Below are positions 1,703 through 2,291 of a DNA stretch of 64,000 nt, in pieces. The notes under the pieces were generated by a model. The model was not told the DNA's origin. It saw only the letters and a program-made list of their open reading frames with translations, and searched no databases. Made by a program: the position numbers and the translations under genes. The stretch's first letter is position 1, and each line of letters begins with the position of its first letter. This stretch comes from a virus (lineage: Duplodnaviria > Heunggongvirae > Uroviricota > Caudoviricetes): the IMG/VR virus record IMGVR_UViG_2654587772_000002; one strand, given 5' to 3'.

Positions 1703-1954
1703 TTAGTTACCGCTGATAGCGCGGTTGTAATCATTAACGTTGCGATTCTTCCTGTTAATCCCCATCAGCATCGTTTCTGTATCAAGGATATAGGCTGGCA
1801 GATCATCAAAATATTCACTGCTAAATTCTGGCATCCTGCACATAAATGCACTTTTGGGGGCAGGGTGGTTAACCTTTGTCGGCGTCGGCGTTAAATTCGC
1901 TGATCGACTCCCGGAGCAACCGCTGAGTGTCAGCAGGAATACGCTGGCGAACAT
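1703..1954 (-). CDS. Proline-rich small lipoprotein (lipobox LSGC), o-spanin-like; begins inside and extends past the upstream gene
   Basis: MFASVFLLTLSGCSGS...TPTPT..PAP; +1-frame overlap with a TM/coiled-coil gene. Confidence 0.45.
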   Translation of the reverse strand: MFASVFLLTLSGCSGSRSANLTPTPTKVNHPAPKSAFMCRMPEFSSEYFDDLPAYILDTETMLMGINRKNRNVNDYNRAISGN

Positions 1955-2291
1955 TACCCACCGCAACCAGTTGTTTCTGAACTTCAGCTTTTCGTTCCAT
2001 TTGCCTGTCAGCATACTTGGCTTGTTCTGATTCATTTTTCACTTCCTGGCTGTGAAAATGTTGCTCTGCTTTGTTCATCGTCTCAATGGTCTGGTTAAGA
2101 TCCATTATTGACTTATCACGTTCCTTAACAGCCTGATCAAGACTGCCAATTTTCTCTATGGCTTGCTTTAGCTGATGACGTTCCCATGCAAACCCAGCAC
2201 CAACAAGTGCGCAAATCAGAACAAGAACACCAGTAGCAGCAAGTTTCTCCTTCAAAGACAAAGCTGTTTTTAACGTAGAAAAGAATGACAT
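1869..2291 (-). CDS. N-terminal TM plus coiled-coil protein, i-spanin-like (AGGAGG SD before ATG at 2291)
   Basis: TM segment LAATGVLVLICALVGAGFAW followed by charged coiled-coil region; overlapped lipoprotein ORF. Confidence 0.5.
   Translation of the reverse strand: MSFFSTLKTALSLKEKLAATGVLVLICALVGAGFAWERHQLKQAIEKIGSLDQAVKERDKSIMDLNQTIETMNKAEQHFHSQEVKNESEQAKYADRQMERKAEVQKQLVAVGNVRQRIPADTQRLLRESISEFNADADKG

Follow-up and report, generated by a model that had tools for sequence, protein, structure and literature searches.

We found that ppfA and mlp, two overlapping genes of a P1-like phage-plasmid, very probably encode a two-component spanin in which PpfA is the predicted i-spanin and the lipoprotein Mlp the predicted o-spanin. 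A preliminary description of the DNA had proposed an overlapped i-spanin/o-spanin arrangement sited by repA rather than by the endolysin gene. That arrangement is borne out by the features of it that can be tested in the sequence, by matches of both proteins to spanin families of the PHROG collection and by the likeness of Mlp to LysC of phage P2.

The window (i.e., the whole stretch of 64,000 nucleotides that was analysed) belongs to a P1-like phage-plasmid and is 98.5% identical to P1 in the region of the pair. PpfA is identical to P1 PpfA at 139 of 140 residues and Mlp to P1 Mlp at 109 of 110, the substitutions being A111V in PpfA and R26W in the n-region of the Mlp signal peptide. The overlap, the Shine-Dalgarno sites and the lipobox are the same in P1, as are the flanking genes (repA, upfA, upfB, upfC, uhr, hrdC and dmt). 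The window element differs from reference P1 in that its dmt carries an intein and in the cargo of its res/mod slot.

Both the pair and its distance from the other lysis genes are already known. SpaninDB lists P1 gp064/gp063 as an overlapped ('ovl') i-spanin/o-spanin pair (Kongari et al. 2018), and Bednarek et al. 2022 treat ppfA and mlp as the predicted spanin genes of P1, located in an operon that is not linked to the remaining lysis genes. Through its citation in Bednarek et al. 2022, Summer et al. 2007 is credited with the original identification. One sentence of Bednarek et al. 2022 swaps the i and o labels of the pair. In GenBank, several records label the two genes PpfA/Mlp, Rz/Rz1 or 'Rz-like spanin'.

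Locus and dual-coding overlap

The pair belongs to the upfC-upfB-ppfA-mlp-upfA operon (Table 1) and adjoins both repA and the oriR iterons. Its siting away from the endolysin gene, pointed out in the preliminary description, is clear from the coordinates: lyz lies 56.5 kb away in the window, and in P1 the distances from ppfA are ~32 kb to lydAB and ~43 kb to lyz. The pair is thus found outside a lysis cassette. A place in such a cassette, beside the holin and endolysin genes, is typical of spanins though not strictly defining of them, and the unlinked position is a documented exception of P1 (Bednarek et al. 2022). For upfB we list the 262-aa form. The P1 record has a longer form of 281 aa, whose start would be at 3176, and upfB of relatives begins downstream of the end of upfC. 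The last operon gene, upfA, is variable among relatives; a Gp49-like gene takes its place in the related locus L003, and it is absent from L004.

Table 1 Features of the ppfA/mlp locus and related genes in the window (positions in the 64,000-nucleotide stretch).
Feature	Position	Strand	Basis or remark
ppfA, predicted i-spanin, 140 aa	1869..2291	-	ATG 2291, stop 1869
mlp, predicted o-spanin, 110-aa lipoprotein precursor, 71-aa mature part	1703..2035	-	ATG 2035, stop 1703
ppfA/mlp dual-coding overlap, 167 nt	1869..2035	-	ORF geometry
Mlp lipobox codons L37-S38-G39-C40	1916..1927	-	sole lipobox match in mlp ORF
PpfA transmembrane helix codons (residues 17-35)	2187..2243	-	Kyte-Doolittle
mlp Shine-Dalgarno AGGAAG, within PpfA Q82-E83 codons	2042..2047	-	6 nt upstream of mlp ATG
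ppfA Shine-Dalgarno AGGAGG	2297..2302	-	5 nt upstream of ppfA ATG; also in SpaninDB
Late-promoter-like motif ACAAAGGACTTCATTGATAAT (putative function)	2311..2331	-	19 nt upstream of ppfA ATG
Late-promoter-like motif ACAAATAACCTAAGTTAAAAT (putative function)	3445..3465	-	33 nt upstream of upfC start codon
upfC, PAAR-motif protein, operon gene 1	3128..3412	-	PF05488 E=1e-5; phrog_281; P1 annotation
upfB, operon gene 2, 262-aa form	2331..3119	-	phrog_1559 covers residues 1-262 end to end
upfA, last operon gene	1299..1691	-	phrog_1453
Terminator-like hairpin + T-run, downstream of upfA	1270..1286	-	sequence scan
lyz, SAR-endolysin	58822..59379	-	window-to-P1 map; ORF; P1 annotation
repA	79-999	-	adjoins ppfA/mlp pair

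The start codons of ppfA and mlp are 256 nt apart, which places mlp in the +1 frame, and mlp extends 166 nt past the ppfA stop codon. This is the geometry of an overlapped o-spanin, and it agrees with the earlier account of a lipoprotein gene that starts inside the transmembrane protein gene and runs past its end. The overlap encodes PpfA residues 86-140 together with the Mlp signal peptide and approximately the first 16 residues of mature Mlp. The layout of the overlap is identical in the related loci L002-L005.

An ORF placed in this way could in principle be a chance, untranslated +1 ORF, with ppfA as the sole real gene. Alternative-frame ORFs of similar length are numerous in the window, so the length of the mlp ORF alone is not beyond chance, and automatic annotation often omits mlp or calls just its non-overlapped 3' part. 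What speaks against such an origin is conservation. The lipobox ORF is intact in every one of the related loci in which ppfA could be located (83/83), and relatives at ~60% identity keep the +1 ORF, its start codon, its Shine-Dalgarno sequence (AGGAGG, at the same place), the signal peptide, the lipobox and the second cysteine, Cys66. Furthermore, mlp has 54 non-overlapped codons that lie outside any other gene, and in this part pS is 0.73-0.87 and pN 0.12-0.18. Outside the overlap, both mlp and ppfA have pN/pS ratios well below 1. Within the overlap, pS in the mlp frame drops to 0.08-0.23, and for ppfA both pS and pN are lower there than in its non-overlapped part. As judged from these alignments, the non-overlapped part of mlp is under purifying selection, and selection is seen in the form expected if both reading frames are really translated. 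An untranslated lipoprotein ORF, which the preliminary description had named as the outcome that would overturn its reading, is contradicted by these comparative data (conserved Shine-Dalgarno sequence, lipobox and pN/pS). Together with the homology of Mlp to P2 LysC, they make a chance ORF hardly credible.

The same data bear on whether the pair, though descended from a spanin, has become redundant or inactive in P1-like elements, with the outer membrane disrupted by something else. Tolerance of knock-down would fit such a history, as CRISPRi of ppfA or mlp gave no plaque or plating defect. For spanins, the lack of a plaque defect is expected under standard plating, and we regard the CRISPRi result as uninformative rather than contrary to the spanin reading. 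The function of PpfA and Mlp in P1 is a prediction, and the lysis gene set of P1 is unusually complex and partly redundant (Bednarek et al. 2022), both of which leave room for a dispensable pair. However, purifying selection acts on both frames where synonymous divergence between lineages is saturated, none of the loci counted above has a broken ORF, and in a set of 77 P1-like phage-plasmids the 21 most conserved genes include both mlp and ppfA (PMC9603915). We also scanned window positions 1201-3500 and the corresponding regions of P1, L002 and L003 for lipobox ORFs. In the window, P1 and L002, no second lipobox ORF was found in the scanned 2.3-2.6 kb around ppfA, and L003 had one extra match, inside upfB. 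Redundancy or inactivity of the pair is highly improbable in light of these results.

Predicted PpfA and Mlp subunits

PpfA has a single hydrophobic stretch (residues 17-35), where the Kyte-Doolittle 19-residue mean reaches a maximum of 2.35. Three lysines (K8, K14 and K16) precede it, and the rest of the protein is without a hydrophobic segment. The transmembrane segment of the earlier account is thereby recovered at the N terminus, and we infer a type II topology for the protein. The remaining 104 residues are 36% charged, and SpaninDB begins the periplasmic domain of P1 PpfA (gp064) at E37 (Kongari et al. 2018). An AlphaFold model of PpfA (mean pLDDT 69) is all-helical, including the charged tail, with helices at residues 13-110 and 120-137 and a break at 111-119; helix runs through the hydrophobic stretch. 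A helical, charged periplasmic domain with an inter-helix linker, as predicted here, is characteristic of i-spanins.

In profile comparisons, PpfA matched phrog_89 ('Rz-like spanin') over residues 21-139 (E=2e-24). A Pfam search returned only sub-threshold matches of coiled-coil type for PpfA and no match for Mlp. Conservation of PpfA among relatives is highest at the C terminus, and Q82 and E83, whose codons hold the mlp Shine-Dalgarno sequence, are invariant in the PpfA alignment. Outside the membrane helix, PpfA has no cysteine.

The mlp ORF contains one lipobox match, the LSGC named in the preliminary description (L37-S-G-C40), with Ser at +2. The sequence therefore has the features of an SPaseII signal, i.e., a lipobox cysteine with no inner-membrane retention residue at +2, and lipidation is predicted at Cys40. 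At this position the lipobox of relatives reads LSAC, LNGC or LNAC. For Mlp, Kongari et al. 2018 obtained a LipoP cleavage site at position 39 and no PROSITE match, and SpaninDB remarks 'Too long signal sequence'; at 39 aa, the Mlp signal peptide is indeed unusually long.

The gene had been described as encoding a short, proline-rich lipoprotein. Its proline content is only moderate (6 of the 71 mature residues, or 8%, with 5 of these within the first 30). The C-terminal half of Mlp is strongly conserved, a trait not typical of short o-spanins. All relatives keep Cys66 (mature position 27), and P2 LysC has a cysteine aligned with it. Cys66 supplies the pair with a periplasmic cysteine, of which a spanin has at least one in either subunit. 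Mlp matched phrog_30284 ('Rz-like spanin') over residues 1-110 (E=9e-78) and phrog_456 ('Rz-like spanin') with E=6e-5. Matches to 'Rz-like spanin' families (phrog_89 and phrog_30284) thus cover most of PpfA and Mlp.

Comparison with other spanins

Homologues outside P1-like elements were found neither in word-indexed protein searches, nor by tblastn of 50,697 phage records, nor in a profile-seeded IMG/VR scan. The most distant homologues, at ~58-63% identity, are those of Cronobacter JK004 and of Salmonella and Klebsiella plasmid-prophages. We also looked for guilt-by-association through homologues sited in lysis cassettes and gained none, the distant relatives all being repA-proximal. The database homologues of Mlp include calls that are frameshifted or chimeric.

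Mlp is 37% identical to P2 LysC over 68 aa (pairwise E=1e-7), and the aligned part of LysC spans the signal peptide, the lipobox, a Thr/Pro-rich stretch and the second cysteine. LysB/LysC of P2 is the prototype of overlapped Rz/Rz1-like pairs; as in ppfA/mlp, the o-spanin gene lysC begins within lysB, in the +1 frame, and continues beyond it. In P2, lysB/lysC directly follow Y (holin), K (endolysin) and lysA in the lysis cassette, whereas the P1-type pair is unlinked. Similarity between PpfA and LysB was not significant in a profile-sequence hhalign comparison. The top NCBIfam matches were weak and fell on the cognate P2 pair, LysB for PpfA (TIGR03495; 19.1 bits, cut-off 92.75) and LysC for Mlp (NF038368; 14.6 bits, cut-off 27). 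By these scores, PpfA and Mlp are non-members of the LysB and LysC equivalogs and at most distant relatives of them.

The spanin genes of lambda lie within the S-R-Rz cassette, and mature lambda Rz1 is ~40 aa long and much more proline-rich than mature Mlp. The lambda pair, which has been characterised experimentally, likewise consists of a type II inner-membrane helical protein and a +1-frame outer-membrane lipoprotein, and it shares with ppfA/mlp at least one periplasmic cysteine for a homodimer disulfide (PMC6139136); in lambda, Rz itself has two periplasmic cysteines (PMC6139136), whereas PpfA has none. Rz1 is wholly embedded in Rz, whereas mlp is overlapped. In T4, the spanin genes PseT.3/PseT.2 also lie away from the holin and endolysin genes and, unlike ppfA/mlp, do not overlap. 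The i-spanin of this separated pair has no cysteine and its o-spanin carries the cysteines, as in PpfA/Mlp, and the T4 o-spanin is a larger protein with a structured C-terminal part, in which it resembles Mlp (PMC6139136). No sequence similarity of the pair to T4 PseT.3/PseT.2 was detected.

Several observations were counted against the spanin reading. In the proteins, these are the long Mlp signal, the modest proline content, the conserved C-terminal half of Mlp (unlike lambda Rz1) and the lack of a periplasmic cysteine in PpfA. Others are the LysB/LysC scores far below their cut-offs, the siting of the pair outside a lysis cassette and promoter motifs weaker than bona fide ones.

Late transcription, candidate promoters and a model for lysis

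For expression we re-read published P1vir RNA-seq data (PMC8201110, Table S1), which give log fold changes at 10 min and 30 min; their kinetics are transferred to the window element by assumption, on the strength of the 98.5% identity, and the reads of the overlapping ppfA and mlp cannot be separated. The operon genes upfC, upfB, ppfA, mlp and upfA are at 4.1-5.6 at 10 min and at 10.5-11.2 at 30 min (PMC8201110). Over the same interval, lyz goes from 6.1 to 11.3, lydA from 5.2 to 11.8 and lydB from 3.4 to 11.0, while the flanking genes are high by 10 min (repA 7.4, parA 9.5, uhr 8.6, hrdC 9.4) (PMC8201110). The kinetics of the operon therefore match those of the late lysis genes lyz and lydAB.

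These kinetics matter for another possible role of PpfA and Mlp, as envelope proteins outside lysis (superinfection exclusion, receptor masking or other lysogenic conversion) that are carried beside the plasmid maintenance module. The phage lipoproteins T5 Llp and lambda Bor act in such roles. A place beside repA/par and far from lyz would suit them, as would a knock-down without plaque phenotype and a conserved Mlp C-terminal half. In the same vein, the P1 record gives only predicted sigma-70 promoters at ppfA and upfC. Yet transcripts that are low at 10 min and ~6 log units higher by 30 min are unlike those of repA/par, and a type II membrane protein paired with a +1-frame outer-membrane lipoprotein is an architecture specific to spanins. 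The PHROG matches are likewise to spanin families, and the similarity of Mlp is to P2 LysC. A defence role was rejected, as the PADLOC defence models gave no meaningful match for the five operon proteins. We thus consider a non-lysis envelope function very unlikely and retain the spanin reading.

In P1, an Lpa-dependent late promoter combines a conserved 9-bp box near -22 (AAGTGACT-like) with a -10 hexamer, the two being separated by 4 nt. Searching with a strict regular expression for such promoters gave no match in the operon, a weight matrix being needed for degenerate motifs, and a generic sigma-70 scan gave no convincing promoter for it. We built the matrix from six annotated P1 late promoters, and it also recovered LP26 and LPpac, neither of which was used to build it. 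The matrix identified one motif upstream of ppfA (score 12.9, rank 8 among all window positions) and one upstream of upfC (score 15.5, rank 7 in the window), both unannotated in the P1 record. Each has 2-3 mismatches in the -22 box, and both score below the eight annotated late promoters (the six of the matrix plus LP26 and LPpac), which range from 19.9 to 28.2. The ppfA-upstream motif is found at the same place in 84/84 related loci as well as in three divergent lineages, with scores of up to 19.5, and a random 60-nt stretch would contain such a motif with a probability of 0.003. At upfC, the orthologous upstream position is among the two best matches in each of L002, L003 and L004. On this evidence we regard it as evenly balanced whether two unannotated Lpa-dependent late promoters tie the unlinked spanin operon to the scattered lysis genes of P1, with ppfA-mlp transcribable alone late.

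The model that we infer extends to localization, complex formation, outer-membrane disruption and promoter identity. The upfC-upfB-ppfA-mlp-upfA operon is switched on late, as the P1vir kinetics show, and may be driven by Lpa-dependent late promoters before upfC and ppfA. PpfA would insert its N-terminal helix into the inner membrane and reach into the periplasm with its helical, coiled-coil-type domain, while Mlp would be exported, lipidated at Cys40 and sorted to the outer membrane with Ser at +2. Binding between the C-terminal regions of the two proteins may then create a periplasm-spanning bridge, restrained by the peptidoglycan mesh. The holin-antiholin proteins LydA/LydB/LydD would control the release of Lyz. 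After Lyz has degraded the wall, the complexes would collapse, with fusion or disruption of the outer membrane as the final step of lysis. There would be no need for ppfA/mlp to lie beside lyz, because their timing would come from shared late transcription and not from linkage.

The value of these results lies mainly in annotation, in that i-spanin and o-spanin labels are due for ppfA and mlp in P1-like phage-plasmids. In addition, late-class expression and conserved late-promoter-like motifs offer a simple account of how a spanin operon unlinked to lyz and lydAB may be co-timed with them. If the two promoters are real, the late regulon of P1 would be larger than annotated, which would explain how lysis genes can be scattered without loss of timing.

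A spanin-like gene pair overlapping in two reading frames

The preliminary description had read two genes beside repA as overlapped inner- and outer-membrane spanins lying away from the endolysin gene; they are identified here as ppfA and mlp. Both ORFs were found, and the mlp start lies 256 nt after the ppfA start, which places mlp in the +1 frame relative to ppfA; the genes have 167 nt in common, and mlp extends 166 nt past the ppfA stop. Shine-Dalgarno sequences precede each gene (AGGAGG, 5 nt upstream of the ppfA ATG; AGGAAG, 6 nt upstream of the mlp ATG).

Table. Features of the window discussed in the text
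Feature	Coordinates	Strand	Description
ppfA	2291..1869	minus	ATG at 2291, stop at 1869; 140-aa ORF
mlp	2035..1703	minus	ATG at 2035, stop at 1703; 110-aa ORF
upfB	2331-3176	minus	as annotated in the P1 record
upfC	3128-3412	minus	PAAR-motif protein; first gene of the operon
Hairpin and T-run	1286..1270		3' of upfA
Motif before upfC	3465..3445	minus	late-promoter-like; score 15.5; 33 nt upstream of upfC start
Motif before ppfA	2331..2311	minus	late-promoter-like; score 12.9; 19 nt upstream of ATG
Motif in gene 7 homologue	16245-16265	minus	ACAAGTGACTGGTGATAACCT; score 20.0
Gene 7 homologue	15584-16312		
lyz	58822-59379		endolysin; 56.5 kb from ppfA/mlp; adjoined by lydD and lydE
dmt	4761-8048	plus	C5 plus N6 DNA methyltransferase; 1095-aa ORF
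Segment at ref position	40672-44040		~3.4 kb
GlxA-like regulator	41985-42974	minus	DJ-1/PfpI and AraC domains
Hydrolase	42990-43766	minus	metallo-beta-lactamase fold
Segment in res/mod slot	45070-46962		~1.9 kb
EAL-domain protein	45259-45948	minus	
AraC-family regulator	46185-46919	plus	

PpfA has a single hydrophobic segment (residues 17-35); the other 104 residues, 36% of them charged, include no cysteine. An AlphaFold model from a 15-sequence alignment (mean pLDDT 69) places residues 13-110 in one long helix and 120-137 in another, with a break at 111-119. Mlp has a basic N-terminus followed by a hydrophobic core and LSGC, the only lipobox match in the ORF, with its cysteine at C40 and Ser at +2. 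Mature Mlp is predicted to have 71 residues, including one other cysteine, C66. The preliminary description thus holds up, apart from its rather generous label proline-rich (six prolines, five within the first 30 residues).

Sequence identity to phage P1, P7 and other P1-like phage-plasmids is 97-99% in this region, which keeps the P1 gene order (parA-repA-oriR-upfA-mlp-ppfA-upfB-upfC, then divergent uhr-hrdC-dmt); PpfA and Mlp are each one residue away from their P1 counterparts. PpfA matched PHROG family phrog_89 (E=2e-24) and Mlp matched phrog_30284 (E=9e-78) and, more distantly, phrog_456, all annotated as Rz-like spanins. The top NCBIfam matches, both far under the curated cut-offs, were P2 LysB for PpfA and P2 LysC for Mlp, themselves a cognate overlapped pair. 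Compared directly, LysC and Mlp are 37% identical over 68 residues (pairwise E=1e-7), in an alignment that spans the signal peptide, lipobox, Thr/Pro stretch and second cysteine; the direct comparison of PpfA with LysB was not significant. Pfam searches of the two proteins gave nothing useful, and PADLOC defence models gave no match.

Neither the spanin assignment nor the unlinked position is new; both appear in the literature and databases. In SpaninDB, gp064 and gp063 of P1 (NC_005856) form an i-spanin/o-spanin pair of the overlapped class ('ovl'), with the same Shine-Dalgarno sites, a LipoP cleavage site at residue 39, a single periplasmic cysteine (in the o-spanin; the i-spanin lacks any) and the remark 'Too long signal sequence' for the o-spanin (Kongari et al. 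2018, PMC6139136). Several GenBank records label the pair Rz/Rz1 or Rz-like spanin. Bednarek et al. 2022 (PMC9025707) treat the two as the spanin genes of P1, set in an operon apart from its other lysis genes, and credit their identification to Summer et al. 2007. A sentence in the Introduction of that paper reverses the o- and i-spanin labels, since PpfA bears the membrane helix and Mlp the lipobox. Both genes are among the 21 most conserved in 77 P1-like phage-plasmids (PMC9603915). A genome-wide CRISPRi screen found both non-essential for plaque formation (PMC10695390), consistent with the conditional phenotype of spanins; we found no later functional test in the papers searched. Together, these data confirm the original observation and support its interpretation as a spanin pair.

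Selection on both reading frames

A 110-codon ORF in an alternative frame is in itself unremarkable, as the window contains many. The lipobox ORF, however, was intact in all 83 related loci where ppfA could be located. In the most divergent relatives available (Cronobacter phage JK004 and Salmonella and Klebsiella plasmid-prophages, ~58-63% identical in PpfA), the +1 ORF is still open, and its start has shifted by no more than one codon. Their Mlp proteins keep the basic n-region, a lipobox (LSAC, LNGC or LNAC), an FMCRMPE motif with the second cysteine and a strongly conserved C-terminal half. The mlp Shine-Dalgarno sequence is also conserved and sits within the codons of invariant PpfA Q82-E83. 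Across the 54 mlp codons outside ppfA, synonymous differences (pS) were saturated at 0.73-0.87 and non-synonymous differences (pN) were 0.12-0.18; where the genes overlap, the mlp-frame synonymous value fell to 0.08-0.23, and constraint on ppfA is stronger there than in its non-overlapped part. These comparisons show that both frames are coding and contradict the alternative that the +1 ORF goes untranslated, which had been named as grounds for rejecting the pair. Such strong purifying selection also argues against a decayed, redundant spanin.

Neighbouring genes and other segments

In the P1 record, UpfB is given 281 aa and a start inside upfC. The corresponding PHROG family has 263 positions and is matched end to end by a 262-aa form, and in divergent relatives UpfB is 258-260 aa and starts past the upfC end, suggesting the ATG at 3119 as the true start. 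The P1 record notes 31% identity between UpfC residues 10-93 and T4 ORF 5.4 product residues 10-96; with its PAAR motif, UpfC is likely a virion tail-tip protein encoded in one operon with lysis genes. The last gene, upfA, is not conserved: a Gp49/Sf6 gp66-family gene replaces it in the Salmonella relative (L003, 4600-4953), it is missing in the Klebsiella aerogenes relative (L004, 4424-4977), and in JL22 a blaCTX-M-55 segment is inserted there.

Near its N-terminus, Dmt carries an intein-like insert (Hint domain, residues 77-126; LAGLIDADG domain, residues 298-361) that splits the C5-methylase catalytic region (GTPC|F...VVHN|C). The insert is also in RCS47, vB_EcoM-Ro157c2YLVW and one P1 isolate, and is absent from reference P1, P7, SJ46 and JL22. 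The ~3.4-kb segment, without counterpart in reference P1, sits at the ref position, with c8 on one side and the 3' end of ref on the other (P1 2026-2306), encodes the GlxA-like regulator and the hydrolase, and looks like cargo of this phage-plasmid. The ~1.9-kb segment, encoding the EAL-domain and AraC-family proteins, occupies the slot of the EcoP1 type III res/mod genes and IS5 (reference P1 3336-9754).

Late expression and candidate late promoters

The distance from lyz bears out the noted separation from the endolysin; lydA and lydB lie past the window end, and scattered lysis genes are a documented P1 arrangement. In P1vir RNA-seq (Table S1, PMC8201110), log fold changes at 10 and 30 min were 4.1-5.6 and 10.5-11.2 for upfC, upfB, ppfA, mlp and upfA, similar to lyz (6.1 and 11.3), lydA (5.2 and 11.8) and lydB (3.4 and 11.0), and head and tail genes followed the same pattern. 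Flanking genes, in contrast, were already high at 10 min (repA, 7.4 and 10.2; parA, 9.5 and 11.5; uhr, 8.6 and 11.1; hrdC, 9.4 and 12.0). The operon thus belongs to the late class in P1vir. An envelope or exclusion function tied to the plasmid module is argued against by these kinetics, by gene architecture specific to spanins and by the similarity of Mlp to LysC.

The only promoters that the P1 record marks at this operon are predicted sigma-70 ones, and a strict late-promoter consensus search found none for it. We then scanned both window strands with a weight matrix built from six annotated P1 late promoters. Annotated late promoters account for five of the top six matches (scores of at least 19.9); two of the five, LP26 and LPpac, had no part in building the matrix. 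The matches before upfC and ppfA ranked seventh and eighth across the window. In three divergent relatives, the two best matches per 8.4-kb locus fall at the same two positions (one scoring 19.5), although the surrounding sequence has diverged. A match lies 18-19 nt upstream of ppfA in 84 of 84 related loci; one as strong is expected by chance in 0.3% of random 60-nt stretches of the window. This rank and conserved position make two unannotated, weaker Lpa-dependent promoters a reasonable but unproven proposal, and the only new element here. The hairpin probably ends the operon. The strong match within the gene 7 homologue, very close to its 5' end, has no annotated late promoter at the corresponding place in the P1 record; it could mark an internal late promoter or could be a false positive.

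On the spanin reading, PpfA would sit in the inner membrane and Mlp would be lipid-anchored in the outer membrane, possibly dimerised through a Cys66 disulfide. The two would bind across the periplasm in a complex restrained by peptidoglycan until Lyz degrades the wall, whereupon the complex would disrupt the outer membrane. Timing is what links the scattered lysis genes.
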